Positions 45,256 through 64,000 of a stretch of 64,000 bases of DNA are shown here, piece by piece; positions within the stretch are counted from its first letter, which is position 1; every line of letters begins with the position of its first letter. The position numbers were made by a program, and so were the translations under genes. This DNA is from an uncultured delta proteobacterium (GTDB lineage: Bacteria; Myxococcota_A; Polyangia; Polyangiales; Polyangiaceae): the NCBI GenBank assembly GCA_963716725.1, contig CAVQUB010000001.1:225901-289900 (forward strand), written 5' to 3'. A model generated the notes under the pieces. It searched no databases. It was not told where the DNA came from and saw only the letters and a program-made list of their open reading frames with translations.

Positions 45256-46166
45256 GGTCACGAAAGCACGGAGCTGCGGTGGCGGCGCCCGACGAGAGCG
45301 GCTTCGTCGACGGCGAGAGCCCGAAGCCGGGGCCGGTGGGCGCCAAGAATGCTCGGGGACGGCGCTCCCAGAGCGGCGTGAGCGAGCCGCCCCCGGGAGA
45401 TCCCAGCTTCCTTCGCACGGCGTGGTCGCTGACCAAGCTCGCGCTCGGCGTCGTGTTGGTGGTGGCGGCGTCGGGGCTGGTCGCTTGGGGAGCGCACCGC
45501 TACGCCCTGACCTCGCCCCGCTTCGCCATTCGAGAGATCGAGGTCAAGGGCGGCAAACGCAAGGCTGAAGATCAGATCGCGCGCGCGGCTGGCATCAAGC
45601 GCGGCGACAACGTCTTCGCCATCGACACCAACGCGGCCGAGCAGAAGCTGCTGGCGGATCCCTGGGTCAAGCAGGTGAAGGTCGCGCGGGTCTTGCCGAG
45701 CACGATCAAGATCGAGCTCGAGGAGCGCGAGGCGGGCGCACTTGCGTCCATTGGCGATCGTCTGTACCTGGTCACGCGCGAGGGCGATCCCTTCAAGCCC
45801 ATCGAAGAAGGCGATCCCTTCGACCTGCCGGTGCTGACGGGCGTGACCGCAGAGGATCTAGCGCGCGACCGCGCGCGGGCCATCGAGCGCGTCGCGCTGG
45901 GGCTCGAGATCGTGAGGCACTGGGAGCGCATCCCGCTCAGTCGCGTTCACCCCGTGCAGGAGGTGCACCTCGCGGCGGGGGGCGACGTGAGCCTGACGGT
46001 GGGCAAGGCCGGCATCAGCGTGCACATCGGCAAGGGTCCGTGGCGCAAGAAGCTGCTGATGGCCGAGCGGGTCATCGGGCAGATGGAGAAGAAGGGCCGA
46101 GCGCCCGGCATCGTGTTCGCGGACAACGTGGCGCACCCCGAGCGGGTGGTGGTGAGGATGCGATGA
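45252..46166 (+). CDS. ftsQ: Cell division protein FtsQ/DivIB
   Basis: TM plus POTRA (PWVKQVKVARVLPSTI); lies immediately upstream of ftsA. Confidence 0.88.
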   Translation: MRSRKHGAAVAAPDESGFVDGESPKPGPVGAKNARGRRSQSGVSEPPPGDPSFLRTAWSLTKLALGVVLVVAASGLVAWGAHRYALTSPRFAIREIEVKGGKRKAEDQIARAAGIKRGDNVFAIDTNAAEQKLLADPWVKQVKVARVLPSTIKIELEEREAGALASIGDRLYLVTREGDPFKPIEEGDPFDLPVLTGVTAEDLARDRARAIERVALGLEIVRHWERIPLSRVHPVQEVHLAAGGDVSLTVGKAGISVHIGKGPWRKKLLMAERVIGQMEKKGRAPGIVFADNVAHPERVVVRMR

Positions 46167-46305
46167 ACGGCCAACTTCTTGGATCCGGGATTTCGCTGGA
46201 ATCCTTCGTGAAAACTTGGCCCCCCGGGGGCCCCTCTGGCAGCGTCGCCCCTGCTTCGAGGCCCGGAAAACCGGCCTCAGTCGAGCCCCGAGGAGCCCCA
46301 AAGCG

Positions 46306-47568
46306 ATGAGCTACGCCGCCCTGTCCAGCCCCGAGATCGTGGTCGGGCTCGACCTCGGTTCGACCAAGGTCAGCGCCGTCGTCGGCGAGGTCGACGGCGA
46401 CGGCATCACCATCCTCGGTGTGGGCAACGTGCCCTGCCGCGGACTGCGCAAGGGAGTGATCAGCAACATCGATTGGACCGTGCGCTCGATCCGCGAGGCC
46501 ATCGACGCCGCCCAGACCATGGCGGGCGTCGAGATCCGCACCGTCTACGCCGGCATCGCGGGATCGCACATCCGCAGCCACATGTCCGACGGCGTGTGCG
46601 CCATCAGCGGACGCGAGGTCACGCGCTCCGATCTCGAGCGGGTGCTCGAAGGCGCGCGGGCGATCCCCGTGGACGCCGATCGCATGATCTTGCACGCGCT
46701 TCCCCGCGAGTACGTCGTCGACAACCAAGACGGCATCCGGGACCCGATCGGCATGAGCGGCGTGCGCCTACAGGTGCGCTGCAACTTGGTGACGGCTGCC
46801 AGCAGCTGCGTGCAGAACGTCGTGCGCTGCGTCGAGCGCTGCAACCTCCAGGTCGCCGACGTCGTGCTCGAGCCGCTGGCCAGCGCCGACGCGGTCGTCT
46901 CCGAAGACGAGAAGGAAATCGGCGTCGCGGTCATCGACATCGGCGGCGGTACCACCGATCTGATCCTGTTCGCCGACGGCGGAGTGGCCCACGTCTCGGT
47001 GATCCCGGCCGGTGGCAACAACATCTCCAGCGACGTCGCGGCGGGGCTGCGCACGCCGCTGGCCGAGGCCGAGCGCCTCAAGCGCAACTACGGCTGCGCC
47101 CTCGGCCGCATGGTGAACGACGACGAAGAGATCGAGGTGCCGGGCGTCGGCGGACACGGACCGCGTCGCGCGGCGCGCCGCTTGCTCAGCGACATCATCG
47201 AGCCCCGGGTCGAGGAGATCTTCAGCGAGGCTCGGCGTCGCATCGAAGAGACCGGGCTGCTCGAGCAGGTGTCGAGCGGATGCGTGCTCACCGGAGGCGC
47301 TGCGCTGATGGAGGGCATGGTCGAGTGCGCGGAGGAGATCCTCGGCATGCCGGTGCGGCTCGGCTTCCCGGTCGGCGTGCGCGGCATCGTTCAGTTGGTG
47401 CAAGGGCCCCAGTACGCGACGGGAGTGGGGCTCGTGCGCTACGGCGCGCAGCAGCTCTCCGACGCCTCGCGCGGCGGGATCTCGCCGGTGGAGCAGGCGA
47501 TCAGCCCGAGCGAGGCCATCGCGAAGAGCAAGAGTGGATTCTGGGGCTGGATCAGGGCTGCGTTCTGA
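46306..47568 (+). CDS. ftsA: Cell division protein FtsA
   Basis: GLDLGSTKV, DIGGGTT, AERLK and LTGG motifs plus a C-terminal amphipathic helix. Confidence 0.97.
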   Translation: MSYAALSSPEIVVGLDLGSTKVSAVVGEVDGDGITILGVGNVPCRGLRKGVISNIDWTVRSIREAIDAAQTMAGVEIRTVYAGIAGSHIRSHMSDGVCAISGREVTRSDLERVLEGARAIPVDADRMILHALPREYVVDNQDGIRDPIGMSGVRLQVRCNLVTAASSCVQNVVRCVERCNLQVADVVLEPLASADAVVSEDEKEIGVAVIDIGGGTTDLILFADGGVAHVSVIPAGGNNISSDVAAGLRTPLAEAERLKRNYGCALGRMVNDDEEIEVPGVGGHGPRRAARRLLSDIIEPRVEEIFSEARRRIEETGLLEQVSSGCVLTGGAALMEGMVECAEEILGMPVRLGFPVGVRGIVQLVQGPQYATGVGLVRYGAQQLSDASRGGISPVEQAISPSEAIAKSKSGFWGWIRAAF

Positions 47569-47707
47569 TCGGCTTCGAGCAGTATTTGGCAACGTAACAG
47601 CGGACGACTAGGCGAAAGAAAGACGAAGGCTCCACCAGGGGAGGCAGGCCCCGGAGCTCGAGTCGAAATGACACAGCGGCGATTACCGCGCCGGGAGGAT
47701 GAGGAAG

Positions 47708-49006
47708 ATGACGTTCTCGATCGAGTTTGCCGACGAGACCCAAGCGTACCAGGCCCGTATCAAGGTGATCGGGGTGGGCGGTTCGGGCGGCAACGCAGTC
47801 AACACGATGATTCACTTCGGCCTCGAGGGGGTGGAGTTCATCAGCGTGAACACCGACGCCCAGGCCTTGGGCAGCAACGCCGCAGCGCAGAAGATCTCCA
47901 TCGGAGCGAACCTGACGCGCGGCCTCGGCGCGGGCGCCAATCCGGAGCGGGGCCGCAAGGCGGCGCTCGAGGACGTCAACCGCCTCAAGGAGGTGCTCGA
48001 GGGCGCCGACATGGTGTTCGTCACCGCCGGCATGGGCGGCGGCACCGGCACCGGCGCGGCGCCGATCATCGCGCAGGTCGCCAAGGAGCTCGGCGCGCTG
48101 ACGGTGGGCGTCGTCACCAAGCCCTTCGTCTTCGAGGGCAAGAAGCGGGCGCGCCAGGCCGAGTCCGGCATCGCCGCGCTCAACGAGCACGTCGACACGC
48201 TGATCACCATCCCGAACGAGAAGCTGATGACGCTCGCCGACGAGGAGCTCACCTTCGTCGACGCCTTCCGCAAGGCCGACGAGGTGCTGTTCCAGGCCGT
48301 GAAGGGCATCAGCGATCTGATCACCCAGGACGGCATCGTCAACGTCGACTTCGCCGACGTGCGCACGGTGATGAACAACATGGGCCGCGCGCTCATGGGC
48401 ACCGGCTGCGCCAAGGGCGAGGGCCGCGCGCGCCTGGCGGCGGAGCACGCCATCATGTCGCCGCTGCTCGACAACATCAGCGTCGAGGGCGCGACCGGCG
48501 TCCTGATCAACATCGTCGGCGGCTCCGACATGAAGATGCGGGAAATCCAGGAGGCCGCCAGCTTGATCCAGGAGCAGGCCCACGAGGACGCCAACATCAT
48601 CTTCGGCGCCAGCATCGACGAGAGCATGGGCGAGGCCATCAAGGTGACGGTCATCGCCACCGGCTTCGACCGCGCCGATGCGGACATCCCCGTCGAGATC
48701 TCCGCGCCGGCCCGGGTGGTCGCGACCGCGCCCTCGCGCCGTGACTCGGCCCGCGACGCCCTGCGCGAGGGTTTCGCCAGCGCGCCCCCGTCCCGCGCCT
48801 CGCTCTCGCGCCCCGCCCTCGATCGCGATCTGGTCCCGGCCATGAGCACGCGCCGCCCGGCTGCCCTCGCCGCGAGCCTGCAAGCGCAGAACGCCCCGAA
48901 CTCGAGCGCGGGTCCCGAGGTCCGTTCCCGCATCAGCTTCCCCGCGTCTCTCGACGCGGACGCGGACTGGGACACGCCTGCGTTCCAGCGTCGCGGCGGC
49001 GGCTGA
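47708..49006 (+). CDS. ftsZ: Cell division protein FtsZ
   Basis: [23 protein letters not shown] and the C-terminal peptide DTPAFQRR. Confidence 0.98.
48941..49006 (+). repeat. ftsZ 3'-end repeat, copy 1 (native gene end)
   Basis: The 48-bp core gacgcggactgg...ggcggctga is identical at 53358-53405 and 60594-60641. Confidence 0.95.
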
Positions 49007-49036
49007 AGTCGCCTCCTTGCCCGTTCGGTATGTCGA

Positions 49037-49069
49037 ACCCCCTCGTCTCGCAAGAGGCGGGGGGGGGGT
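49037..49069. terminator. GC-rich hairpin after ftsZ (GCAA loop); terminator-like or att arm
   Basis: accccctcgtctc-gcaa-gaggcggggg lies between convergent genes and has no U-tract. A near copy occurs at 53450-53476. Confidence 0.6.
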
Positions 49070-49195
49070 GGTGCGCCCAGCGCTACCCAAGGGGCTCCGC
49101 GGAACGAAACCAGAGCGGGTTGGGCTGCGGGCTCGCGGGGCGCACAGACCTGGGATTGGACGAGGCGCTTGGCACGCACGAACTCGCCCGCTACG

Positions 49196-49825
49196 TCAGT
49201 TGCCGCTCGTCCCGGGCGGCGGATCCGGAACGAACACGTACTGCTCATTGGCAACTACGATCTGGGGGGTAGTGGCGCGTTGGATCGTCCCAGTCAGGCG
49301 GACGGGGGTTTCCTTGGGGAATGGACAAACACGTTCGCAGTTGTTTTGGCAGTCAAAGTCATGGCACAGATACTTGTTGAGCGTCTGCGGGTCCATGATG
49401 ATGAGCGAGCTCGCGTTGCCTTCGCAGGCCGGCATCCCGACAGTGCCAGGCGGCACGAAGACCGCACGACCCGTGCATCCGGTGCAACTCCCGCACTTAA
49501 TCATCTTGCAGGTGATGGGTGCGTCGCACGACACCACCCAACCGGCGGTGGTGACTCGCTTTCCGAAGTAGGCCGCGGCCTCCACGATCAAGCGCTCGAT
49601 TGACACTTCCTCGGGGCTCTCTGGAGCGCTCGTCGCGTCATTGACGCCCCCATCGGACGCTCGGACGCCCGCTTCCGGCAGTCCGGGGTTGCCGGGTTCG
49701 GCCCGAGGCGTCGCAACGCCTTGGGATTGACCTGACGGCGCGCGACAGGTCACCGCCATCGCGGCGCCGAGCGTGGCCAAGCAGACGCTACGCGTCGCGG
49801 CCGAGAAAGCACCTCGGATGCTCAT
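49196..49825 (-). CDS. Small Cys-rich putative lipoprotein (module 1)
   Basis: Hydrophobic N-terminus ending AVTC and many Cys; starts 5 bp after the protease stop. Confidence 0.65.
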   Translation of the reverse strand: MSIRGAFSAATRSVCLATLGAAMAVTCRAPSGQSQGVATPRAEPGNPGLPEAGVRASDGGVNDATSAPESPEEVSIERLIVEAAAYFGKRVTTAGWVVSCDAPITCKMIKCGSCTGCTGRAVFVPPGTVGMPACEGNASSLIIMDPQTLNKYLCHDFDCQNNCERVCPFPKETPVRLTGTIQRATTPQIVVANEQYVFVPDPPPGTSGN

Positions 49826-49830
49826 CGCCG

Positions 49831-52800
49831 TCAGAGCCCGAGGAGCTGTTGGGTGGGCTGGGGCTTCGAGGACTGCTTTCCGCTCGCGGCCGGCGCTGCG
49901 GGCGCTGCGGGCGCGGTGGTCTTGAAGAACGTGACCTCCGCGGCGTTGATGGCCCGCAGAAGAGCCAAGAGGTCATCCGCGTGAGCTGAGTCCGCCGCGG
50001 TCCATGTGCACGCGCCCCGGCCGACAAGTAGAGCTCCCGCGCTTGCAATGACGTCAGCGACCGAGCTGTCGCGCGTATACACGAACGCACCCGCCAGATC
50101 TTCGCCGGCCGCAGCTCGCGCGACGACGTTGATCTGGCCAGCCAACAACTCGGCGTAAAGGTCGGCCATCACTCGCGCTGGGCCGATGGTGTCGCCGTGG
50201 GCTAGATGCGCCGGCAGTGCGGGAGCCCCGACGACGAGCAGCTTGGTTTTGGTACCCTGCTTGCCTGGCGGCAGATGGCACACGGCCGCGTGCGAGCCGT
50301 TCGCGCCGCCAAGCTCGGGAGCGGTGCCACTGAGCATGGCCGTTGCCCCCGATGCTGATGCCACCGAAATGCCACCAACGGTGATCGGCAAGAACGAACT
50401 CACGTCAGCCGAGATCCACTGATCGACGGGGACCGCTCCGCTCGGGCTGAGCCGCCGGGTGGGCTGGCCGAAGACCTCGTATGTGACCGGAGAGCCCACC
50501 GGGGCCCAAATGCGGACGTTGTTCTGGACGCGAAGGTTCTGCCATCGCCATTCCCACGCGCCAGGCACACCCTGGACCGTGACCTTCAACTGCTCCTCGT
50601 CGAAGACCGTCACCCCGTCGTTGTTTCCCGATGGGTTCGTGTTGGTGAGGACGACCGCCCCCGAGGGGTTCCGCACGTCGTAGCGAAGATCTGCGCTGGC
50701 GCCGGTGGCGACGCCGTTGGACTTCACATCCAGCGGCCCGCGTTGGCCCACGACCGCAGGATCGTCGTCCACCAGGATGTCAGCGTCGGCATCTCGGAGC
50801 GTCATCGAAACCGACGCGGTCCCGACATCCACGAAGAACCGAAATACTCCGTCGTACTTGGTGTCCAGCATCGCGGTGTCGGCGAGCGGACCCACGGCGA
50901 AGGGGCCGGCGAGATCGCGCGCGATGAACGCGAAGTCATTGGCGATCGTGCTGACTTGACCCGTAGCGCGCACCTTGAAGCTGTTGGTGAGCCCGGCGGT
51001 GACCGGAATGACGGGCTGCCCGCAGGCCGCCTGGGTCAGGTACACGTCGAGAATGTAGAAATGCGCCCCGCTTCCGCTCGCAGTACCGAAGACCGGTCCA
51101 GCGTATATCTTTCCCCAGGACGCGTCGGGCAGCGCAGCGTCCTCGACCACCGTGGCCGGTAGCAGCGTTTCGGGGGTGGCCTTGTCCTTGGAGCTGTAGA
51201 GCTCGTAGCACGTGCGGGTGCCGGCGTTGTTGCCGGTGTCGTACAGGCTTCCAAGCGTCTGGTCACCGTCGAAGACCTGAACGGTGACGGCGCTTTGGCC
51301 GGCGGGTACGCCGATGAGAAAACGAGTGCGCTGATTGGGTACGGTTGCGAAAGGTTGCCCCGTCACCGTCACGAATCGGCCATCGTCGCCGTCTGCTGAC
51401 GGGAAGCCCGAGAGCGGCACGCCTTTGTTGACGGGTCCGTTCGCACCACCGAAGTACAAGTCTCGCGTCCCGTCCTCTCTGATCAGCTCCAGATCGATGA
51501 AGCCGTCCTTGTCGGCGTCCCCGGTCGAGTACTCGACGTAGGTCCCGACGAGCAGGGGGAAGACGGAGCCGCCCAGATTCACATCGAAGAAGATGGCCTG
51601 CGCCCCAGCGACCACGACGAAATCTTCAACGCCGTCGTTGTCGAAGTCGCCCAGCGGAACGAACGAGAACTTGTCCGCCTGCTGCTGTGAGACGGGGAGC
51701 AGAGTGTCGAACGACACAAGGAACGCACCATCGATGTAGATGTTGATCCACAGCGTGCCTTGGTCCTCGAAGAACGCCAGGAAGTCGTCGCGGATCCCGT
51801 CCAGGTCGTAGTCATAGGCGACGGGCAGCCATTTCCGCGGAAGCTGCTTCAGGTCGAGGCCGACCGAACGATGGTCGCCGCTGCCCGGGCACGTCGGCGC
51901 GCCTTGCCCGGTTGGAAAACAGTCCTGCGTGCAGCCACCGGGGCCGAGCACCTCTTTCGGCCCAGAGATGACCATTCCGAGCGCCGCCCCGGAGGGCGTC
52001 AGCACCGGAGCGCCACTGGACCCAGGCAGCAGATCGGCCTCGACGGTGAACGTTCCGGGTCCCCCGCCGTTCACCAGCACTTGGCCGACGCTCGCAATGT
52101 TGACCTGATTGTCGAGCTTGAGTGGAAGGCCCAAGTTGTGCGTCCAAACGAGGTTGTTCTGCGAGGGCGCGACCGGCGCACTAGCTGGGAACAGCGGTTC
52201 GCGGGCGGCCGTCAGCGGGCCGCCGGTGCCGGTGCCGCCGCTCACCGGACGATCCACTCGGAAGACCACCCAATCGTTGGGCAGCCCGCTGGTCGTGGGC
52301 AGCGCGACCGGACCGTGATCGAGAACCGCATCGCAGAAGTAGATGTGGCGTGAAAAATGTTCGGGTTTCCGTCGGGAAAGCTCGAGCCGCTCGTGCGCCA
52401 CCGCATCACCACCGACCGCTCCGCGCATTCTTGATTCCAGCCGTTCCATGGAAACACCAGATCGGTCATGCAGTGCGCGGCGGTCGCGAATCGATCAGGT
52501 CCGATCATGAACGCCGTGCACGGCGCGGTTGGCAGGACGCGCTCGGAGCTGAAGAACTCCCCGCGCAGAGCCCCGATGGCGTCGTGGACATGATCCAGGT
52601 GCAATCGGTGGCCGTCGGAGGTACGGGACAGTTGAAGGCCGTCGAGTTCAGCTGGGATCGGTTCGCCATCAGCCCGACCGCGGTGCCGTATTCCTGGTGA
52701 GCCAGGGTCGACACGTTCTCGAAGTTCTTCAGGTTTGCATTGCCCCAGATCACCTCGGAGGCGGTGTTCGAGCGCGGACTCTCCATCGGCCCGTCAGGTG

Positions 52801-52930
52801 ATGAGCACGCCGTGGGTGCGACGAAGGCCAGCAGGGCGAGCAGCGCTATCGCCGCGCGGCGTGCCCCCTGCGAGGCTCGTGCCAACCTCGATACGAATGC
52901 AGTCCGCCAGCCGTCTCGTCCTTGCGCCAT
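49831..52930 (-). pseudogene. Trypsin-like (S1) serine protease lipoprotein of about 1030 aa, split by two single-base deletions (possible sequencing errors)
   Basis: RBS GGAGG and lipobox PTAC are in frame 1, TAAHC in frame 2, and NDWVVF plus PGSSGAP in frame 3. The frames join by adding one G (~52560) and one T (~52355) to short homopolymers. FG-GAP-like DxDxDG motifs follow. Confidence 0.8.
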
Positions 52931-53126
52931 CATCCACCTCCCGCGCAGCCAACGCCCCAGAGCTGAATCAACACGAAGGAGGTCGGGGTCGTCAAGGTAC
53001 GAATCAGCGCACACGCACACGCGCACGCCGACCTCGCCGACCTCGCGGCGTGCCCGGCTGCGCCCAGAAGCCCTGCGACAGTAGGTGGCGCCAGCGGCGA
53101 CGGGTTCTCTCTCGCGCGCCGTGCAT

Positions 53127-53339
53127 GCGCAGCGCTCGCCGACAAACCCGAACGTACGCACCTTCCCCTGCCGCGCGCAGCAAACTGCGCGCGCGACGCG
53201 CAGCGCGCTTCTTGTTCGTACCGCGAGGCGCGGGCTGCGAGCACGGCTTTGGGGAAGGTCGCGCGGCCGGAGACAGCGCGAGGCAGTGGGTCGCTCGCGC
53301 CGAACCTCGATCGAGGACGCGCGGGTTGGGGCAACAACA
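53127..53339. repeat. Conserved non-coding arm, copy 1, with a large imperfect hairpin at 53161-53258
   Basis: Homologous to 58235-58362 joined to 60500-60584. Nested inverted repeats ccttcccc/ggggaagg, gccg/cggc and gcagc/gctgc. Confidence 0.9.
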
Positions 53340-53405
53340 CCTGCGTCGCTCGACGCCGACGCGGACTGGGACACGCCTGCGTTCCAGCGTCGCGGCGGCG
53401 GCTGA
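53340..53405 (+). repeat. ftsZ 3'-end repeat, copy 2
   Basis: 66 bp matching the ftsZ end, with three synonymous differences. Confidence 0.95.
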
Positions 53406-53449
53406 GCCTCCGCCACGTCCGCTTTCGATTCCTCCGTCTGGTATGTCGA

Positions 53450-53476
53450 ACCCCTCGTCTCGAAAGAGGCGGGGGT
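53450..53476. terminator. GC-rich hairpin (GAAA loop), homolog of 49037-49069
   Basis: acccctcgtctc-gaaa-gaggcgggggt, preceded by the shared ggtatgtcga. Confidence 0.6.
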
Positions 53477-53478
53477 GC

Positions 53479-55506
53479 CTATTTGCGTGCCTCGAGGTTC
53501 TGGAGGAGCTCGGCGTTGCGGTCGATCGGCGCGCCGCGCCGTAGGACCACGAAGTTCGGGCGCTCGGCGTGGAAGCCGAAGCGGCCGGCGGTGAGCTCGT
53601 CGGTCACGATGCGCCGCGCCGCCCCGAAGTCGATGTCATCGTAGGAGTAGAGGAGGAAGTCCGCCCCTTGGTGCTCGTATTTGAGCGTGAACAGGTACTC
53701 GCGCTGGGCGAGGTGCGGTGTGTCGTGCTCGGTGGCAGCCACGCTTGCGTTGGCCGGAATGGTCTCGGCGATTTCGCGGAGGTTCTTCAGCTTCTCGGCG
53801 TGCTCCGGGGTGAAGTCGAACTGCACGCGGCCGCCGCCGGAGACGAAGTTGCGTTGTTGCAGCGCGCCGAACTGATGCGTGGCTAGAATCGTGCCGAATG
53901 CGAGCGCCCCGAGGGCCGAAGCGCGACCGATGGAGCCGACCGTCTTGCCCAGGTGCTCGAGTGCCAAGACCGCTGCGATGAAGACGTAGGGCGTGAAGTG
54001 CGTCACGTACTGGAAGCGGATCTCCACCACGGGGAGGTATCCGGTCGAAAGCAGCGTGACGAAGGCGCCTGGAAACAGCAAGAACCAGAAGCGCTTCACG
54101 CGCAGCGGCAGAAAAGCGAGCGGCACGAATACGTGCAGCGCGAACGGGATCTTTTCCGGGAGCAAGATCGTCGCAAGCACGAAGAGGGGATTGGTGAGGA
54201 GAGTGCGGAGCACGCCTCTGAACCCTTCCTCGCCCGGGGCCACGAGCTTCTCGTAGATGTAGACGAACGAAGCGTCCCCATAGCGCGGCATGATGACGAA
54301 CTTCACCATGACGAGGTAGGTGGCCGAGAGCACGAAGAGCGCGGCGCCGACGCGCGCACGATGGCCGGCGAGAACCAGCGCGAGCCCGACACCGATTCCT
54401 CCGAAAGGCAGGTCTTCACGGCAGAAAAGAGCCATGACGACGAAGACCCAGAAAGGCACCCAGCGCTCGGCGAAGAAGAAGTATGCCGCCCACAGCACGA
54501 AGAACGCGGAGATCGTGAGGAAGTGGAAGTCGCTGAAGTTGGGCGCGTGCAGCGGGGGATAAAGGAGAAACGCGGCGGCCAGCAGCGCGGCCATCCAGTC
54601 GCTCCCGAGGCGACGACGCGCGATCAGATACAGCGGAACGGCCGACAGCCCGAGGAGCGCCGACTGCAGGATCACCAGCGTTGAAGCGTCGGGGCGCAGC
54701 GCGTAGATGGGCGCGAGCAGGTAGACCGCGGGCTCGGCGTGGATCGAGAGGTACGATCCGGCGCGGGGATGGGTGATTGGGCAGTAGAACGGCCGGCCAT
54801 GCAGGGTGTTCCAGAAGAAGGTCGCAAAGTAGCCGAGGTCGAACCCCGATGTCTGGCGCCGAAGGTGCTGGAGCCACGTGTAGTAGCTCATGTACCCGAC
54901 GAAGCTGCTGACGAGCACGACAACGATTGCGTGCGGGGCCCACGCGAGCACGCGGGCGCGCGCGCCAGAGCCGGCGGCACGGAGCCTGGCCGCGCCTGCG
55001 CGCAGCAGGCCGAGCTCATCGGCGGCGACGAGCGTCGTGCGCAGCGCCCGCTCGAAGGCGATGACCAAGACCGCGGCACTCACCAGGTACGGAAGATCGC
55101 GGCCGACCCAGGCGCTGACCTTCATCATGGGCGGCAGCGCCCAAAGCACCAAGGACGCGGCGAACAGCCGGGCGACCTGGGAGGCACGGTCGACTTGCGC
55201 GACGGCCGCAACCCTGCCCCCACGCCTCCACGCGTGGGCCCCGGCCGCCAACGCGAGCACACATGGAATGGCCGCGCCCACCAGGGTCCAGGTGATGAGG
55301 CGCTCGCGCACCGCCGATGGGACATCGTTGTGGGCGACGAAGGCCGGAAGCCACTTGCGCCCGCGCAGCGCGAGCAGGAAGCAGGCGAGGCTCGCGCCTT
55401 CAGCGGCGAACAAAAGCAAAGTACGCATGAGCCGCGTGGTCGCTGGCGCGTCGACGGCCGGCGGCGTGGCCGCCAATGCGCTCGACGTTCGGGAGTGTGC
55501 TGGCAT
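53479..55506 (-). CDS. DUF2079-like polytopic membrane protein (GT-C glycosyltransferase-like)
   Basis: Many TM helices with FDLGYF, SYLSIHAEP, DFH and CRED motifs. Confidence 0.75.
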   Translation of the reverse strand: MPAHSRTSSALAATPPAVDAPATTRLMRTLLLFAAEGASLACFLLALRGRKWLPAFVAHNDVPSAVRERLITWTLVGAAIPCVLALAAGAHAWRRGGRVAAVAQVDRASQVARLFAASLVLWALPPMMKVSAWVGRDLPYLVSAAVLVIAFERALRTTLVAADELGLLRAGAARLRAAGSGARARVLAWAPHAIVVVLVSSFVGYMSYYTWLQHLRRQTSGFDLGYFATFFWNTLHGRPFYCPITHPRAGSYLSIHAEPAVYLLAPIYALRPDASTLVILQSALLGLSAVPLYLIARRRLGSDWMAALLAAAFLLYPPLHAPNFSDFHFLTISAFFVLWAAYFFFAERWVPFWVFVVMALFCREDLPFGGIGVGLALVLAGHRARVGAALFVLSATYLVMVKFVIMPRYGDASFVYIYEKLVAPGEEGFRGVLRTLLTNPLFVLATILLPEKIPFALHVFVPLAFLPLRVKRFWFLLFPGAFVTLLSTGYLPVVEIRFQYVTHFTPYVFIAAVLALEHLGKTVGSIGRASALGALAFGTILATHQFGALQQRNFVSGGGRVQFDFTPEHAEKLKNLREIAETIPANASVAATEHDTPHLAQREYLFTLKYEHQGADFLLYSYDDIDFGAARRIVTDELTAGRFGFHAERPNFVVLRRGAPIDRNAELLQNLEARK

Positions 55507-55551
55507 GAGCCGGTCGCTGGGAGCGTCTCAATGGGGAAAGCGGCGGTGCGG

Positions 55552-55953
55552 TCAGTCGCTTCCGCAGGGGGTGTCTTGCTGCATGTTGATCACCCACACC
55601 CCGCCCTTGCAGACCGCGGTGATGAGCTCCCACTTGGCGGCGTTGCACCACGAGCACACGGATGTGGGTGGGTTACAGCAAGGGCCAAGAGTCAGCGGCG
55701 GATCGGCCGGGCAAGCGCAGAGGGCGTCGGCCTCGAGTGTGGCGTCGGCGTCGTGGTCGCCAGCGTCAGGCACGTCGAGTTGCGCATCGCGGTCCGTCGC
55801 CGAGTCGCTCGCGGCGTCCTCGCCCGGGGCGTCGACCGGGCCATCCGTTCCGCCATCCGACGCGAGGTCGGAGTCCGCCGAGCCCCCGCACGCGCCGTGG
55901 AGCGCGATGGCGCCAAGCACGGCAAGAACCAGGATGAAACGTCGCGCTCGCAT
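55552..55953 (-). CDS. Small Cys-rich lipoprotein (module 2)
   Basis: MRARRFILVLAVLGAIALHGAC lipobox, acidic linker and Cys-rich C-terminus; starts 10 bp after the protease stop. Confidence 0.7.
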   Translation of the reverse strand: MRARRFILVLAVLGAIALHGACGGSADSDLASDGGTDGPVDAPGEDAASDSATDRDAQLDVPDAGDHDADATLEADALCACPADPPLTLGPCCNPPTSVCSWCNAAKWELITAVCKGGVWVINMQQDTPCGSD

Positions 55954-55963
55954 GCTGCGTCCC

Positions 55964-58078
<2,115 letters not shown>

Positions 58079-58234
58079 CTGCACCCTCCCGAACCTGACT
58101 GCGTTCAGGTCATCAGGTTCACCGGGAGCCGTCAAGCGCAGTGGTTGCGACTCAGCGTCGGAAGGTGACGCAAGGGCAACACGACCCGCCGCCCGGCCCG
58201 CGGGCTGCGACAGCACGGGTCGCAGCGCCGACGA

Positions 58235-58362
58235 GCGCAGCGCTCGCCGACAAACCCGCGCGCACGCACCTTCCCCTGCCGCGCGCAGCAGACTGCGCGA
58301 GCGCCGTGCAGCGCGGTCCCTGTTCGCGCCGCGAGGCGCGGTCTGCGAGCACGGCTTTGGGG
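58235..58362. repeat. Conserved arm, copy 2, 5' part (intron 5' exon)
   Basis: Aligns without gaps to 53127-53254. Confidence 0.9.
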
Positions 58363-60499
58363 TCGCGCCCGGCATGGGCGCAGAACAGAAGGTGAGAACC
58401 AGTACTCGATGAGAATTGATTCAAGTCCTTTGAGGGCCCTGACAGAGGGAACCTCTCACCGAAGGCAAGGGCGTCGGCTCGGAGCACCGAGCTTCACGCT
58501 TGCGGTTGTGAGCCGCGGTGTGCCCGCGAGGGGACGTCTGGTGGAAGCCGTAGGTGCAACACGGAACCGAGCGCAAGCGAAGCGCCGTAAGGCATACGTA
58601 CCGTGGGTGAGCCGGTCTCCAGCGGCGAAGCCCGAAGTCTGTTGGTCGGTCGGGTGTAGTGGCGACGGGATTCGTGTGAAGTTCTGCGTTTCTTACCCGG
58701 GGAGATCTGTCGGCCTCCGTGCGATGAGCACGGTAGCAGTCGAGGACGAAAGGACGAGACGATGACGGGACGAGAGAAGTCGGATGGTCGCGTAGTACCG
58801 GAAGGTCGTCGAAAGGCGCACCGAGCCGACGAGGGTCGGGAAGGGAAGGCGGTCACGGCCAGCAAACAGGTAGAGCAGCTCGCTCTGTTCGACGAGACAG
58901 CCGAAAGCCCGAAAGGGGCCGCGGTCGGACGAACGTCGGGCCCACCCGGCGGGAAACGACTCGCGGTGCCGAAGTCGTCGCAGGGAACGAGCAACGCCCT
59001 ATCGCCGATGACGATGGAGGAGATAGCCAACGATGCAAACCTGAGACGGGCGTTTCAGAAGGTCGCAGCAAATCGCGGCGCCCCTGGACCCGACCGGCAG
59101 ACGATCGGAGAGGTGCGAAAGAACCTCGAAGATTGTTTGGCCGCGCTCGGGCGGAGCTTGCTGGACGGGAGCTATCGAGCCGGGGATGTCCGGCGCGTGT
59201 GGATCCCCAAGGCGAGTGGAGGTCAGCGAGGACTTGGCATCCCGAACGTGATCGACCGGATCGTGCAGCAGGCGGTGCACCAAGTGCTCAGCCCGCATTA
59301 CGAGACGACCTTTCACGATTGGAGCCACGGTTTTCGCCCGGGTCGTGGAGCCCACACGGCCATCAAACGAGCCAAGATGCATCTGGGAGCCGGCAACGAC
59401 TGGGTCGTGGACATCGATTTGGAGAAGTTCTTCGACCAAGTGAACCACGATCGACTGATGTCGCGGCTGGAGCAGCGCATCGCGGATCGCCGCGTGCTCT
59501 CGCTGATCCGACGGATGCTGAAGGCCAAGGTGGTGATGCCGGACGGAGTGGTGGTAGCGACGGACGGCGGGACTCCGCAAGGGGGCCCACTGTCGCCGCT
59601 GCTCAGCAACATCGTGCTCGACGAGCTCGACCGTGAGCTCGAAGCGAGAGGGCATCGATTCGTGAGGTACGCAGACGATTGCAATGTCTACGTACGGAGC
59701 GAGCGTGCCGGGCAACGTGTGATGGCGAGTCTCGAGCGCTTCATCGAGAAGCGCTTGCGGCTCAGGGTCAACAAGGAGAAGAGCAAGGTGGCGAAGCCAC
59801 AGACGCGGTCTTTTCTCGGACTGACGCTACATCGGCTGAAGTCTGGGCCAGTCCGCGTCCTGGTGGCGGAGTCGTCCTGGGAGCGTCTTCGGCAACGGCT
59901 GAAGGAGCTTACGCCGCGCAACTGGGGGCAGTCGTTCGACGAGTGCATCCAGCGCGTGAACGTCTATCTCCGCGGTTGGCTCGGCTACTTCGCGATCTGC
60001 GATGGGAAGCATCACCCTCGAATGGACCGTGTCGACGGTCATCTCCGCCGTCGCCTGCGCGCTCTTCTGCTGAAGCAGTGGAAGCGCAAGCGGCACATCG
60101 TGAACCGATTGATGCAAATGGGAGTGCCGGCTCCACTCGTGCACGTCGATGTACATGCACGAAGACGGAGCTGGTGGGCGCTCAGCAAGGTCCGCGCCGT
60201 TTCTCGGGGGCTCAACAACGAGTACTTCGAGCGACGCGGCCTCTTTGCGCTGCACGCTCACTGGCGTGGCAACCACGAGCGCATTTGGCACATCGGCTTC
60301 CCGCCGCCGGTGCGGCAGGGAAGATGAGCTGAGGCGCAAGCTGATGATGGAAGAGGACCCGCCCCGGGCTACGCGAGCCATGAGGTCTCGTGAAGAACAC
60401 GGCCGTCGCCAACGCCATCGTCCCGAAGAGCCGGATGTGAGGCCCACAAGTCCGGTTCTGTGAGAGGGGCCCCCGGGCAACCGGGGGTCCCTACTCGGC
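58363..60499 (+). mobile_element. Group II intron (IIC-like) with RT/maturase ORF
   Basis: Starts ..cgcccggcatggg, contains ttcttacccggggagatctg, DV gagccggatgtgaggcccacaagtccggttc and DVI with a bulged A at 60493. Ends are defined by the intron-free paralogous site gggg|aagg at 53254/53255. Confidence 0.92.
59008..60327 (+). CDS. ltrA: Group II intron reverse transcriptase/maturase without an endonuclease domain
   Basis: RRVWIPK, LGIPNVIDR, SHGFRPGR, GTPQGGPLSPLL, RYADD and domain X (LRGWLGYF). The in-frame upstream start at 58762 overlaps ribozyme domains II-III. Confidence 0.93.
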   Translation: MTMEEIANDANLRRAFQKVAANRGAPGPDRQTIGEVRKNLEDCLAALGRSLLDGSYRAGDVRRVWIPKASGGQRGLGIPNVIDRIVQQAVHQVLSPHYETTFHDWSHGFRPGRGAHTAIKRAKMHLGAGNDWVVDIDLEKFFDQVNHDRLMSRLEQRIADRRVLSLIRRMLKAKVVMPDGVVVATDGGTPQGGPLSPLLSNIVLDELDRELEARGHRFVRYADDCNVYVRSERAGQRVMASLERFIEKRLRLRVNKEKSKVAKPQTRSFLGLTLHRLKSGPVRVLVAESSWERLRQRLKELTPRNWGQSFDECIQRVNVYLRGWLGYFAICDGKHHPRMDRVDGHLRRRLRALLLKQWKRKRHIVNRLMQMGVPAPLVHVDVHARRRSWWALSKVRAVSRGLNNEYFERRGLFALHAHWRGNHERIWHIGFPPPVRQGR

Positions 60500-60641
60500 A
60501 AGGTCGCGCGGCCGGAGACAGTGCGCGGCAGTGAGTTGTTCGCGACGAACCTCGATCGAGGACGCGCGGGTTGGGGCAACAACCCTCGACGCCGACGCGG
60601 ACTGGGACACGCCTGCGTTCCAGCGTCGCGGCGGCGGCTGA
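60500..60641 (+). repeat. Conserved arm copy 2, 3' part (60500-60584), plus ftsZ 3'-end copy 3 (60585-60641)
   Basis: Matches 53255-53405 with a 9-bp deletion. Confidence 0.95.
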
Positions 60642-60888
60642 AGTTTCCTCCTCGCCTGCCCCCTCTGTCGGCAGCCAGCGGAAACCGCGGAATTCTGAGC
60701 AGCCCGAACTGACGGCGTAGTTGGCCCCGGTGTGGCAGGCCGCCGACGATCTCGGGCCGCCCACCAAAGAGTAGGGCTCGGAGTCACAACACTCCGAGCC
60801 CCGGGCCGCCGCGAGTGGACGCGTTCGACATGACCGTTGTCGCACGAGTCCTCCGGGGTGGCCGAGTTTCCGGTGGTCGCACTCGCGA

Positions 60889-61527
60889 GTGGACGATCTC
60901 CGGCAAGTTCAATGCGTGATGGACGCGTGCCGGCGAGTCTTCTACCTCTGCCGCGACTGCGATCACGGCCACATCTATTGCGTCGACGGGCGCCACAATG
61001 AAGAGCGTGCTCTGCGCCGCCGGACGAAGCAGCGGGAGCACTGGCGGACGCCGAAGGCGAAGCGGAAGACCGCTGCTCGGACGCTCCGCTGGAGGGAGCG
61101 TCGGAAGAAGATAGTGACGGACACAGGTCGCCAGGAAGTTGCCCCGGCGTCGATCGTTTTCGTCGCGGAGCGTTCCGCCGTCGCTGTGACGGTCGAGCCG
61201 CCCCGCCGCAAGGAAGCGACCGATGACCGACATCTGGATGGGAATTGCGCCGGAGCGGCACGCCACGCGTGTGATCGCGATGGCAGGCCCGGGCGAGACG
61301 ATCTTGAAGGCGCGCCTGTCGCCGTCGCCCGTGCACCCACGCGCGATGGCCACGCTGCTGGAGGCAGTGGCGCTGTGGCAGGGAACGCGGGTCCGCGCTG
61401 CGCTCGCTGCGGCCGAGCAGGGGGAAGGGTCCGACTCGAGCCTCTTTCGCGAAGCGTTCACCGACGGCGGACCGCTCTACACCGTCGACTGGGTCCCCGC
61501 GTGCCGCGCGCGCCGCCGGCACCGTGA
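60889..61527 (+). CDS. IS21-associated Cys-rich basic protein (putative Zn-binding)
   Basis: CRRVFYLCRDCDHGHIYC, a basic helix and CARCGR near the C-terminus. Confidence 0.55.
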   Translation: MDDLRQVQCVMDACRRVFYLCRDCDHGHIYCVDGRHNEERALRRRTKQREHWRTPKAKRKTAARTLRWRERRKKIVTDTGRQEVAPASIVFVAERSAVAVTVEPPRRKEATDDRHLDGNCAGAARHACDRDGRPGRDDLEGAPVAVARAPTRDGHAAGGSGAVAGNAGPRCARCGRAGGRVRLEPLSRSVHRRRTALHRRLGPRVPRAPPAP

Positions 61528-61591
61528 TCTCGCTGGCGTCGGCCCGTTCGGTGACCTGCGCCAGCTCGTGCTGTTCGAGGTGGCGCGATGA
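61223..61591 (+). CDS. IS21-associated hypothetical protein
   Basis: Globular 122-aa ORF with RBS AAGGA; stop overlaps the istA start (ATGA). Confidence 0.6.
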   Translation: MTDIWMGIAPERHATRVIAMAGPGETILKARLSPSPVHPRAMATLLEAVALWQGTRVRAALAAAEQGEGSDSSLFREAFTDGGPLYTVDWVPACRARRRHRDLAGVGPFGDLRQLVLFEVAR

Positions 61592-63132
61592 TCCCCGAGG
61601 AGCTGCGTTCGCGCATCCGACGGCTGTTCTTCGCCGAGCACTGGAAGATCGGCACCATCGCGGCCGAGCTCGGCGTGCACCACGATGCCGTCGAGCACGC
61701 GCTCGAGCCAAAGCAATTCATCAACAAGCGCTGGGCCGCTACGGCGGCGGCGCTCGACGCCTACAAGCCGTTCGTCAAGCTCACGCTCGACCAGTACCCG
61801 CGTCTGCGCGCCACGCGCCTGCTCGAGATGATCCAGGACCGGGGCTACACCGGCAGCGTCAGCGCGCTGCGCCGCTACGTGCGCAAGGTGCGGCCCGTCT
61901 CGCGCCACGAGGCATTCTTCCGGCTGTCGGTCCTGCCCGGCGAGCAGGCGCAGGTCGACTGGGGCTCGTTTGGCAAGATCCGGGTGGGCCGCGGCGAGCG
62001 CTTCCTGTCCTGCTTCGTGATGGTGCTGGCATGGTCGCGAGCGACGTTTGCGCGCTTCACACTGGACCAGACGCTCGAGAGCTTCGTCCGCTGTCATGTC
62101 GAGGGATTCGAGCGTCTCGGCGGCGTGCCGCGCACCGTGCTCTACGACAACTTGAAAAGCGTCGTGCTCGAGCGACAAGGCGACCTCATCCGCTTCCATC
62201 CGAGGATCCTGGAGCTGGCCGGCCACTACCACTTCGCGCCCAAGCCCGTCGCGATCGCACGCGGCAACGAGAAGCCGCGGGTCGAGCGCCGGATCCGCGA
62301 CCTGCGCGAGTCCTTCTTTGCCGCTCGCGGTTTCGCCTCGCTCGACGACCTCAACCGGCAGCTGGACGAGTGGATCCAGCGGATCGTGCACGCGCGCCGC
62401 GTCCCCGGCGAGGACGAGCTCACGGTCGCGCAGGCGCTGACCCTCGAGCGGGAGCGACTGCTGGCGTTGCCCGGGCACCGCTTCACCGCCGACCTCGTGC
62501 AACCCGTCGCGTCCGGCAAGACGCCGTACGTGCGCTTCGACCGAAACGACTACTCGATCCCCCACACGCTCGTTCGGAAGCCGCTGACGCTCGCGGCCTC
62601 CGAGACCACGGTGCGCATTCTCGACGGGGATCGCGAGGTCGCTCGCCACGAGCGCAGCTGGGACCGCCGCGCGCAGATCGAGTGCGAAACGCACCTCGCG
62701 GCGCTCGCCGCCGAGAAGCGCAAGGCCCGCGACCACCGCGGCCGCAATCGGCTGTCCGCGGCGTGCGCCAACGCGACCCCGTTTCTCGGCGCCGTCGCAC
62801 TCCACGGCGGACACCTCGGCGGCACCACCAGCCGGCTGCTCCGCCTGCTCGATCAGTACGGCGCCGTCGAGCTGGATGCCGCCCTGCACGAGGCTCACCA
62901 GCGCGGCGCGTTCGCGGCGCACTCGGTGGCTCACGTGCTCGACCAGCGGCGGCGCGTTCGCGGCGCTCCCGTGCCGCTCGACGTCGTGCTGCCGGCCGAT
63001 CCACGGGTGCGCGACCTCGTGCTCACGCCCCACTCGCTCGACACCTACGACCGCATCGGACGCACCACTCCCACGCGGATCGACGACGACAGCGCGCCAA
63101 CAAACAACCCCAACGAAAGGGACCCGTCATGA
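61588..63132 (+). CDS. istA: IS21 transposase
   Basis: HTH, PGEQAQVDWG, LYDNLK and EKPRVER (DDE) motifs. Confidence 0.95.
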   Translation: MIPEELRSRIRRLFFAEHWKIGTIAAELGVHHDAVEHALEPKQFINKRWAATAAALDAYKPFVKLTLDQYPRLRATRLLEMIQDRGYTGSVSALRRYVRKVRPVSRHEAFFRLSVLPGEQAQVDWGSFGKIRVGRGERFLSCFVMVLAWSRATFARFTLDQTLESFVRCHVEGFERLGGVPRTVLYDNLKSVVLERQGDLIRFHPRILELAGHYHFAPKPVAIARGNEKPRVERRIRDLRESFFAARGFASLDDLNRQLDEWIQRIVHARRVPGEDELTVAQALTLERERLLALPGHRFTADLVQPVASGKTPYVRFDRNDYSIPHTLVRKPLTLAASETTVRILDGDREVARHERSWDRRAQIECETHLAALAAEKRKARDHRGRNRLSAACANATPFLGAVALHGGHLGGTTSRLLRLLDQYGAVELDAALHEAHQRGAFAAHSVAHVLDQRRRVRGAPVPLDVVLPADPRVRDLVLTPHSLDTYDRIGRTTPTRIDDDSAPTNNPNERDPS

Positions 63133-63911
63133 CCGACCTCGCTACGCACATGCGCAGCCTCGGACTCCTCGCCACGGCCGCCGCGCTCGCCGACATCGTC
63201 GCGCTCGCGACCAAGAAGCGCTGGGGTGCCACCGAGCTGCTCGAGCACATCGCGGACATCGAGGAGAAGGACCGCGCGGTGCGCGGCCTCGCCAGACGCA
63301 AGAAGCGCTCCAAGCTCGAACGCTTCAAACTGATGGCCGACTTCGACTGGAACTGGCCCGAGAAGATCGAGCGCTCCCTGGTCGAGTCGGTTCTGCGCCT
63401 CGACTTCATCTCCGAGGCGCGCAACGTCGTGCTGGTTGCGCCCCAAGGCCTCGGCAAGACCATGATCGTCCAGAACATCGCGCACCAGGCGATCCTCGCC
63501 GGACACGGCGTGCTCTTCATCACCGCCGCCCAGCTCCTGCTCGACCTTGGAGCGCAGGAGTCGTCGCGAGCACTCGATCGGCGGCTGCGCTACTACGCGC
63601 AGATCGGACTGTTGATCATCGACGAAATCGGATTTCTAGCATTCGACAACCGGAACGCCGACCTGCTGTTCCAGGTCGTCAGCCGCCGCTACGAGAAGAA
63701 GAGCCTGGTGCTCACCACCAATCTCCTCTTTCGCGACTGGCACACCATCTTCCCCAACGCCACCTGCGCCACCGCGCTCATCGATCGTGTCGTCCACCAC
63801 GCCGACGTGATCAGCATCGAGGGCAAGAGCTACCGGGTCCGTGACGCCGAAGTCGACGCCAAGGCCCGGGCCGCCAAGCTGCCGAAAGGCGGTGCGCCGA
63901 AGAAGGCATGA
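63129..63911 (+). CDS. istB: IS21 helper ATPase
   Basis: DFDW, Walker A QGLGKT, LIIDEIG, TTN, DRVVHH and GKSYR motifs. Confidence 0.95.
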   Translation: MTDLATHMRSLGLLATAAALADIVALATKKRWGATELLEHIADIEEKDRAVRGLARRKKRSKLERFKLMADFDWNWPEKIERSLVESVLRLDFISEARNVVLVAPQGLGKTMIVQNIAHQAILAGHGVLFITAAQLLLDLGAQESSRALDRRLRYYAQIGLLIIDEIGFLAFDNRNADLLFQVVSRRYEKKSLVLTTNLLFRDWHTIFPNATCATALIDRVVHHADVISIEGKSYRVRDAEVDAKARAAKLPKGGAPKKA

Positions 63912-64000
63912 GCGTCAGCCCGCCGCTACGATGCAGCCCGGGTCGTCCTCGAAGACGAACCGGGCTGTTCCGTTTTCTGCGGATCTGCGCGCTCGTCAAC

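Follow-up and report, generated by a model that had tools for sequence, protein, structure and literature searches.

Extra copies of the ftsZ 3' end behind a family-restricted folded repeat in an uncultured member of the Polyangiaceae

The ftsZ locus and the copies of its 3' end

The window analysed here is a stretch of 64,000 nucleotides (nt) from the genome of an uncultured delta proteobacterium of the family Polyangiaceae (genome G000, C1:225901-289900), and its end coincides with the end of the contig. It contains an intact ftsZ gene and, downstream of it, two further copies of the last codons of that gene, each of them preceded by a copy of a folded repeat which we refer to as the arm. 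The intervals between the three ftsZ ends hold two sets of genes, cargo 1 and cargo 2, and a group II intron; the third end is cut by an insertion sequence (IS) (Table 1). The source assembly comprises 35 contigs (84% completeness, 3.9% contamination). It was compared with G002, a relative of the same genus assembled in 5 contigs, and with three further genomes of the genus (G001, G003 and G005). Positions 53127-53476 were queried against 41 genomes, nine of which matched, and the Pfam scan of the window covered 14 open reading frames (ORFs).

Table 1. Features of the ftsZ locus (window coordinates)
Feature	Position	Strand	Basis
ftsZ, intact, ending in tail 1 (T1)	47699..49006	+	Pfam Tubulin E 9.2e-48, FtsZ_C E 4.5e-34
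Short spacer after T1 and hairpin 1 (G+C-rich stem, CAAG loop)	49007..49066	+	repeat search, alignment
About 105 nt between hairpin 1 and cargo 1, unique	49067..49171		7 genomes of the genus searched
Cargo 1	49172..53022	-	209-aa (amino acid) ORF 49196-49825, 872-aa ORF 49831-52449
Arm copy 2, complete folded repeat	53127..53338	+	cmsearch 177.6 bits over 53142-53352
Tail 2 (T2; 53349-53405), long spacer and hairpin 2; native ftsZ 3' flank, apparently displaced by cargo 1	53340..53476	+	ortholog comparison
DUF2079 membrane protein gene, ancestral neighbour of ftsZ	53479..55506	-	Pfam E 1.6e-62
Small ORF 's', no family	55552..55983	-	ORF as listed extends to 56205
Trypsin-like lipoprotein gene 'trypA'	55964..57960	-	Pfam Trypsin 25.7 bits; open frame to 58375
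Arm copy 3, 5' part	58235..58362	+	repeat search 90%; covariance model
Group II intron in outer stem of arm copy 3	58359..60499 (few-nt precision)	+	ORF 58762-60327, RVT_1 + GIIM
Arm copy 3, 3' part	60497..60583	+	repeat search 92%; covariance model
Tail 3 (T3; 60585-60641) and 24 nt of spacer, cut by IS	60585..60665	+	repeat search, alignment
IS21-family element, to contig end	60666..64000	+	IstB-like ORF 61524-63911, Pfam IstB_IS21 E 5e-60

The repeated segment is 57 nt long (the last 19 codons of ftsZ, coding for 18 residues) and occupies 48950-49006 within the gene (T1) as well as the positions listed for T2 and T3, at start-to-start spacings of 4399 and 7236 nt. T1 and T2 agree at 56 of 57 positions, the single difference being synonymous; T2 and T3 agree at all 57, and all three tails encode the same 18 residues. 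In copy 2, homology to ftsZ begins about three codons (P-A-S) before the tail. A first-pass annotation of this DNA had described a 48-bp core identical in the three tails, a common hairpin after T1 and T2, a shared arm of ~210 bp before T2 and T3, and units whose sizes (4399 bp, and 5099 bp with the intron removed) match the spacings given above. All of this was borne out: the core is an exact 48-nt stretch, the hairpin repeat extends over 25 nt (96% identity), and the arms match in two parts, a 5' part of 128 nt at 89.8% and a 3' part of 84 nt at 92.9% (87 nt at 92% in the repeat search).

Outside the tails the copies are less alike. Spacer and hairpin after T1 have 69.9% identity to those after T2, the short spacer of T1 being a diverged version; the 24-nt spacer after T3 is nearer to the type found after T1 than to that after T2 (55% identity to the T1 spacer), and over an 86-nt repeat, copy 3 has 88% and copy 2 74% identity to copy 1. 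The arm-to-tail junction of copy 3 has 9 nt fewer than that of copy 2, a deletion that is in frame. The genome-wide search for core and arms proposed in the annotation found the arms to be dispersed and revealed a fourth copy, made up of the 3' part of the arm, a tail and a hairpin, at C2:477024-477246 (minus strand), 5.4 kb from the contig end; three hairpin copies are present in the whole G000 assembly. This fourth tail has three differences, one of which is an A-to-T change also found in G001 and G005. Across the copies, the tails differ at 1-3 of 57 positions, by G/C, G/T and G/A. Three arm-tail copies have the junction GGGGCAACAAC in common and, because they share it, the arm-to-tail junction probably arose once. 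The tail part is matched once each in G001, G002, G003, G005, G009 and G014, and several times only in G000.

As the tails are 98-100% alike, compared with 90-93% for the adjoining arms and 70% for spacer and hairpin, the sequences suggest that the ftsZ tails evolve in concert, which indicates continuing recombination among the tail copies. The orthologous tails of G001, G002 and G005 differ at several synonymous sites. We also considered the possibility that arm and tail together encode a free FtsZ C-terminal peptide. The frame is kept, including across the 9-nt difference, yet the arm copies of the window, C2, G001, G002 and G005 have GTT at the start position (ATG or GTG in other copies), and the C2 copy differs in its frame upstream; this candidate was rejected.

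Contrasting origins of cargo 1 and cargo 2

The ftsZ gene of the window has 86-88% DNA identity to those of G001, G002, G003 and G005. In G002, ftsZ with its tail and hairpin runs directly into a DUF2079 gene (minus strand, 75% DNA identity to that of the window), followed by a trypsin-like gene (minus strand, 71%) and an arm (plus strand); the corresponding proteins, from the same positions, have 73% (DUF2079) and 61-65% (trypA) aa identity to those of the window. This order of genes, which the window and G002 have in common, identifies cargo 2 with its arm as the old neighbour of ftsZ, and cargo 2 is no accreted cassette. The hairpin likewise is the 3' flank of ftsZ itself, and is found as such in G001, G002 and G005; moreover, the flank of T2 has 87-88% identity, without large gaps, to the ftsZ 3' flanks of G001 and G005, compared with 81% to the flank of T1 in its own genome.

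Cargo 1 has another history. Positions 49172-53081 match C5:12524-16424 in inverted orientation with 95.5% identity over 3915 nt, the high identity extending from ~49178, just beyond the stop codon of the 209-aa ORF, to ~53022. The 872-aa protein, which has a weak Pfam match to Trypsin_2 (21.2 bits, below the cut-off), aligns with the frameshifted C5 copy at 98% and 93% (tblastn), and the source cassette on C5 also sits among arm-type repeats. An ortholog (80%) is present in G002 at C2:1933508, away from ftsZ. The short segment between hairpin 1 and cargo 1, 49067-49171, has a match in one of seven genomes of the genus, namely G000 itself. Given the C5 copy, the placement of the ortholog elsewhere in G002 and the empty site that G002 presents at ftsZ, cargo 1, which lies between T1 and T2 as direct copies of the ftsZ end, is with respect to G002 a recent insertion.

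The first-pass annotation had proposed that both intervals are cassettes integrated at ftsZ, and had advised a comparison of strains in search of an empty site. That comparison upholds the proposal for cargo 1, for which G002 supplies the site without the insert, and overturns it for cargo 2, which stands at the same place in G002. The 'hairpin arm' of the annotation, there assigned to the mobile element, is native flank. The segment 53127-53476, which it regarded as a complete site like an element attachment site (attP), consists of an arm joined to that flank and is attR-like, with a spacer orthologous to those of G001 and G005 (87-88%); copy 3, in which an arm is joined to a tail and then to a spacer nearer the type of T1, is closer to an attP than is copy 2.

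The stretch after ftsZ is a variable spot that differs in every examined species of the genus (L031, L032, L033). In G001 it holds an ORF without known family followed by a GlmS-like gene; in G005 ~135 nt of the DUF2079 end are kept after the hairpin, and Zeta-toxin and MNT/HepT toxin-antitoxin genes then precede a GlmS-like gene; in G003 an IS91-family transposase fragment comes directly after ftsZ, with radical-SAM genes. Beyond its arm, G002 carries a truncated DUF2079 gene (aa 45-228, 86% to its own intact gene), a small ORF and a second trypsin-like gene (trypB, 52-56% aa identity to trypA), and then an IS110 element, an arm fragment and an RCC1-repeat gene.

The arm is a covarying repeat of one family

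The long arm is not confined to the ftsZ locus. It is a folded repeat of 135-210 nt that is dispersed through the family: 22 of the 61 genomes searched (21 of 60 genera) contain it, some with as many as 10-12 copies, and these often lie near contig ends or in same-strand arrays. In an order-wide sample searched under strict filters it was present in two of 101 genomes, both from this family (f1), and the covariance-model search under these filters found it in none of 89 genomes from 23 other families of the order.

RNAalifold applied to 16 arm copies from six genomes predicted 33 base pairs, 12 of them with compensatory changes. The covariance model built from this alignment gathered 50 arm copies, in which 97.0% of cells are paired and 26 of the 33 pairs change on both sides (248 cells). 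None of 500 shuffles matched this, and sliding the pairing partners gave at most 11 pairs and 33 cells. The 50-copy alignment leans towards the covariance model because it was fitted to that model; the covariation of the outer stem is also seen in an independent MAFFT alignment. There are 22 G-U cells as against 10 A-C cells, which suggests, though only weakly, that of the two strands it is the one written here that folds. No Rfam family matched the arm: at the gathering threshold, only the intron was matched within 46000-64000, and a search at E values up to 10 gave a single chance-level small nucleolar RNA match, on the opposite strand, within 53050-53500. The arm is thus a strongly covarying, family-restricted folded element, and it may be new in its own right.

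A miniature inverted-repeat transposable element was considered for the arm, whose ends are imperfect inverted repeats and some of whose copies form inverted pairs; it was set aside, as target duplications could not be defined. The middle of the arm contains three independent breakpoints that are no more than ~12 nt apart, at 53246-53258 (equivalent to 58362|60497 in copy 3): the intron insertion in copy 3, the point where homology to the truncated arm at C5:12282-12370 ends, and the point at which the C2 copy begins.

What adjoins the arm at other loci

The DNA just past the 3' end of the arm repeatedly copies a nearby segment whose original has no arm before it. In G002, the arm adjoins an antisense copy of an internal DUF2079 segment, the one described above. 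On C10 of G000 it adjoins a 132-nt copy of the end of an Rhs core, with 92% identity to the main Rhs gene; the orphan Rhs frame there opens at the ATG of the arm, 7 nt after a GAGGA inside it, and its product has 73% identity to the main Rhs protein up to the DPxG motif and diverges beyond. In G052 the arm adjoins a segment of the main RHS gene (91%). The 3' half of a transfer RNA (tRNA) gene, tRNA-Pro, is repeated together with the arm around a PIN-toxin pair in G042, and a tRNA-Ser 3' fragment adjoins the arm 3' end in G008; among the 49 arm copies outside the window, five have their 3' end at most 25 nt from the 3' end of a tRNA gene. To this extent the attP-like logic that the annotation saw in arm plus core was reasonable, since an arm followed by a copy of a target end recurs at tRNA and Rhs genes. 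The copied segments are unrelated to each other and range from ~22 nt (tRNA-Ser) to ~570 nt (DUF2079). With ftsZ, DUF2079, two Rhs loci, tRNA-Pro and tRNA-Ser, the arm end lies at junctions with six unrelated partners in five genomes, which on the sequences compared seems hard to ascribe to chance.

A second recurrent companion lies at the other end of the arm. In eight of the 49 arm copies outside the window, a divergent gene for a DUF559 (Vsr-like) nuclease begins 30-190 nt from the arm 5' end on the other strand (on C10 of G000, where it is frameshifted, in G001, in G008 twice, in G042, and in G052 three times); the window arms have no such gene. Cassettes between arms elsewhere include AbiEii/AbiEi, a helix-turn-helix (HTH) protein and MazF.

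Two arrays give an impression of such loci. In G052 (L073, C1:345000-364000), four same-strand arms at intervals of 2.1-2.9 kb come after FG-GAP and RHS genes; three of these arms have a divergent DUF559 nuclease gene, and two orphan RHS ORFs begin inside the arm 3' end, one of which encodes a TNT toxin domain. In G000 (L009, C5:134000-152000), 27 nt separate the end of an RCC1-repeat gene from an arm; three same-strand arms then follow, with AbiEii/AbiEi and HTH cassettes between them, and a TniA/TniB-like transposon module lies beyond. The RCC1 gene also has a partial arm 3' end 100-170 nt upstream of it. We considered the post-arm segment of this C5 array as a copy of the RCC1 gene end; it instead matches the partial arm upstream of that gene.

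Origin of the extra ftsZ ends

We favour, with about even confidence, an explanation in which the extra ftsZ ends are displaced 3' tips, left by homology-driven insertion or duplication of modules that end in an arm. The far end of such a module would be the arm, followed directly at its 3' end by a short copy of the end of the target gene, which in the ftsZ case would comprise the last 19-22 codons and the terminator-like hairpin. Recombination within this short homology, by a single crossover of a circle or by unequal crossing-over, would insert the module behind an intact ftsZ and push the old tip and native flank downstream. If H denotes the copied segment, a module ordered arm, H, new end, cargo would yield gene, H, new 3' end, cargo, arm, H, old 3' end. 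In this order the incoming tip would be T1 and the short spacer and hairpin behind it, the inserted module would be cargo 1 with its arm, and T2, the long spacer, the hairpin and DUF2079 would be the old tip and old neighbour, while the ancestral arm after trypA would have gained the third tail by arm-to-arm recombination with a second module or by a further duplication. We infer that homologous recombination does the joining, and the origin of the first arm-to-tail junction is a matter of inference likewise.

A site-specific recombinase acting in trans would account for some of the same features. Non-autonomous circles with one attP would have been integrated serially by a tyrosine or serine recombinase at an attB in ftsZ, as in cis-mobilizable elements that stack next to an integrative element. 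Direct repeats of the target end do flank cargo 1 and G002 gives an empty site; the arm lies beside tRNA 3' ends, which are classic integration sites, and a tRNA 3' half is repeated in tandem units; and the 19 places in G000 with a tyrosine recombinase domain (PF00589) could act in trans. None of these places is in the window, however, the nearest being C1:194758-196452, and by coordinates none is within ~50 kb of any arm of this 84%-complete genome, in which the serine recombinase family PF00239 has no match; the co-occurring recombinase that the annotation had recommended looking for was therefore not found near the arms. Its remark that neither module contains a recombinase was correct (0 of the 14 window ORFs by Pfam), and no integrase turned up among the ORFs scanned beside arms and arrays of other genomes, including G002, G008, G042 and G052. 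Cargo 2 with its arm as ancestral neighbours of ftsZ, and the hairpin as native flank, are also difficult to reconcile with serial integration. Finally, the fixed core and crossover site of a site-specific element are lacking, since the segments adjoining arms are unrelated, of very different lengths, and start at a point that floats by ~15 nt to either side of the arm end. This floating start argues against a fixed-site recombinase and is compatible with homologous recombination, illegitimate joining at a structure-prone site or a nuclease-stimulated process. We regard action of a recombinase in trans as improbable.

A plainer alternative is ordinary segmental duplication of a unit consisting of tail, hairpin, DUF2079, s, protease and arm, the content of one unit having later been replaced by a paralogous protease cassette from C5. 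Chance breakpoints would have made one arm-to-tail junction, amplified afterwards, and the arm would be a bystander. In G002, an old second unit (truncated DUF2079, s', trypB) does follow the arm, and in the window 53340-60583 resembles one complete unit of a tandem array. The fourth copy on C2 continues into a paralog of this unit, 92-93% identical to the start of cargo 2, with s' (aa 75-217 of ORF s are 84% identical) and a 1700-nt internal deletion of DUF2079; the probable single origin of the GGGGCAACAAC junction is in keeping with such amplification. Synteny of contig C2 with the ftsZ region of G002 found no support. On the other hand, the breakpoint falls at the arm 3' end in at least six unrelated cases from five genomes, for which chance is an unlikely cause; cargo 1 is a 95.5% copy of sequence from a different contig; and, as the annotation had noted of the cargo, the proteins of cargo 1 and cargo 2 cannot be aligned (BLASTP E >= 0.5, the best E for the large proteins being 1.4). 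Units alignable along their length are thus seen in the second unit of G002 and the C2 paralog, and not between the two cargoes. Simple duplication seems to us unlikely, though it deserves more weight than a recombinase in trans.

Misassembly has also to be weighed, as strain variants could have been chained together via the 57-nt tail common to them and via arms that are 90% alike. The assembly is in 35 contigs, with the completeness and contamination given above, the tail repeats exactly over a length close to that of short-read k-mers, and the window sequence is present in metagenome runs from nine studies (wastewater, biofilter, groundwater and sediment). We compared the window with contigs from four runs of four studies, for which 15 of 54 joints are listed. 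One contig in each of the four runs, at approximately local depth, joins 58236, the start of arm copy 3, back to 53193, inside arm copy 2; this could be an extra unit or circle produced by arm-by-arm recombination, or an unassembled paralog. Since this joint recurs in all four runs, arrangements other than the assembled one exist. Conversely, two stretches are spanned with 0 differences by contigs of independent runs, one from T1 through hairpin 1 into the start of cargo 1 (48977-49474, run X1) and one from T3 into the IS (60585-60865, run X9); some genome must contain the arm-to-tail junction, whose sequence is unique and which occurs in three non-identical versions; and arms (90%) and spacers (70%) are too different for collapsed repeats. 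We therefore consider an artefact very improbable. All four runs also contain the deletion joint of the C2 paralog, from 53561 to 55262 with 10 inserted letters.

Several points nevertheless weigh against displacement of ftsZ tips by arm-ended modules. Such displacement does not account for the formation of the first arm-to-tail junction, and 57 nt is short for efficient homologous recombination. The second unit of G002 could equally well be a plain old tandem duplication. The floating start of the copied segments provides no defined mechanism, and the finding that breakpoints lie at the arm end is partly circular, as the boundary of the arm was defined by where copies stop matching. Among the 15 joints listed from the contigs of the four runs there is no T1-T2 or T2-T3 joint, and no circle, excised allele or crossover product was seen in these contigs. 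The order of the units across the 57-nt repeats, moreover, rests on the 35-contig, 84%-complete assembly.

If tip displacement by arm-ended modules is correct, the ftsZ locus may be one instance of a family-wide, integrase-free stacking of cassettes, since the same arm is found at Rhs main/orphan junctions and in tandem tRNA units. A more far-reaching proposal, which we put forward only tentatively and consider rather doubtful, is that the arm, sometimes with the DUF559 (Vsr-like PD-(D/E)XK) nuclease, is the functional element of a so far undescribed system of cassettes that needs no integrase and is confined to one Myxococcota family; in this system, arm and target-end copy together would form a programmable attachment site for homology-driven, perhaps nuclease-stimulated insertion. 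The arm 3' end would be joined to a copy of any gene end (tRNA, Rhs core, DUF2079 or ftsZ), and the module would carry a spare C-terminal peptide and terminator, so that the essential ftsZ survives.

Intron, insertion sequences and other features

The group II intron is of full length and lies on the same strand as the arm that it interrupts. It has an Rfam match (RF02001) at 58520-58690 and encodes a 521-aa reverse transcriptase/maturase in which no endonuclease domain was seen. A copy with 97.6% identity is present at C13:94664-96804 and a partial one on C20, and all three end in CTACTCGGC. A template jump by a reverse transcriptase, from arm RNA to the 3' end of ftsZ mRNA, was considered as the source of the arm-to-tail junction and rejected, as the junction of arm and antisense DUF2079 in G002 does not fit it.

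The IS21-family element begins 24 nt after the stop codon of T3. Its left end is 98% identical to C5:720653-720803, and a deleted copy is found at C5:720653-721634. An IS91-family (Y2) transposase was examined as a possible mover of arms, with genes 1-2 kb from two truncated arms (C5 and C12) and after ftsZ in G003; this was dropped because ~970 nt separate the arm from the end of the 1.18-kb repeat unit and adjacency is not consistent. The 1.18-kb unit covers most of the Y2 transposase gene and is present in at least seven copies of 99.3-99.9% identity, at C13:110109-113649 and 126927-128107 and at C8:414898-417265 and 422716-423888, and three of the C13 copies lie head to tail, as if made by a rolling-circle process.

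The likely start of trypA, as read from the alignment, is near 57960, after a lipoprotein-type signal. Just upstream of the gene is a (CTGT) run of ~10.5 units (58017-58058), at which short-read contigs break, and G002 has ~5 units (L030:7868-7888); the run is a possible phase-variable tract.

Relation to known systems and significance

We compared the locus with four known kinds of system and found that every one of them lacks at least one defining feature here. As in the orphan arrays of Rhs and CdiA, an intact gene is followed by cargo and then by partial copies of its own 3' region, and genuine Rhs loci on C10 of G000 and in G052 have this same arm repeat where main gene and orphan meet. 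However, ftsZ is an essential division gene and not a polymorphic toxin; its tips encode the same peptide (with the one A-to-T change in the fourth tail), so that nothing is diversified; there are no immunity genes, the cargo consisting of proteases and a membrane protein; and the arm subfamily of the window has GTT where others have ATG or GTG. The resemblance to integrative and cis-mobilizable elements lies in the direct repeats of a target end flanking an insert, in the intact gene, in the stacking of integrase-free units, and in the use of tRNA 3' ends by arm-bearing units elsewhere; unlike such elements, the locus has no integrase nearby, the core varies between sites in both length and sequence, and one of the two supposed cassettes is ancestral flank.

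Integron arrays similarly contain small same-strand cassettes separated by a folded element, and those between arms (toxin-antitoxin pairs, nuclease, toxin tips) are separated by one of 135-210 nt; however, no IntI-type integrase was seen, the arm is conserved in sequence as well as in fold, and it adjoins a target copy rather than ending each cassette. With diversity-generating retroelements the locus shares a repeat, close by, of the final ~60 nt of a gene and, after the gene end, a G+C-rich hairpin with a four-base loop. In the present case, by contrast, the only reverse transcriptase is of the group II maturase type (RVT_1 and GIIM) and lies inside the intron, the tail copies are identical or differ in a manner not specific to adenine, and the target is a conserved partner-binding peptide. 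A full-text keyword search of the literature returned nothing on ftsZ as an insertion site or on a DUF559-linked repeat.

If duplications merely carried the arm along, the locus amounts to a rearrangement hotspot of an ordinary, though ornate, kind. If arm-ended modules do displace gene tips, cassettes could be stacked at gene ends without a dedicated integrase, and even the end of an essential division gene would be usable as a landing pad by means of the replacement tip that the module carries. The arm marks the boundary of Rhs orphan tips, of toxin-antitoxin cassettes at tRNA genes and of DUF559 nuclease genes, and would thus offer a handle on the assembly of orphan toxin arrays and of small defence and toxin cassettes in myxobacteria.

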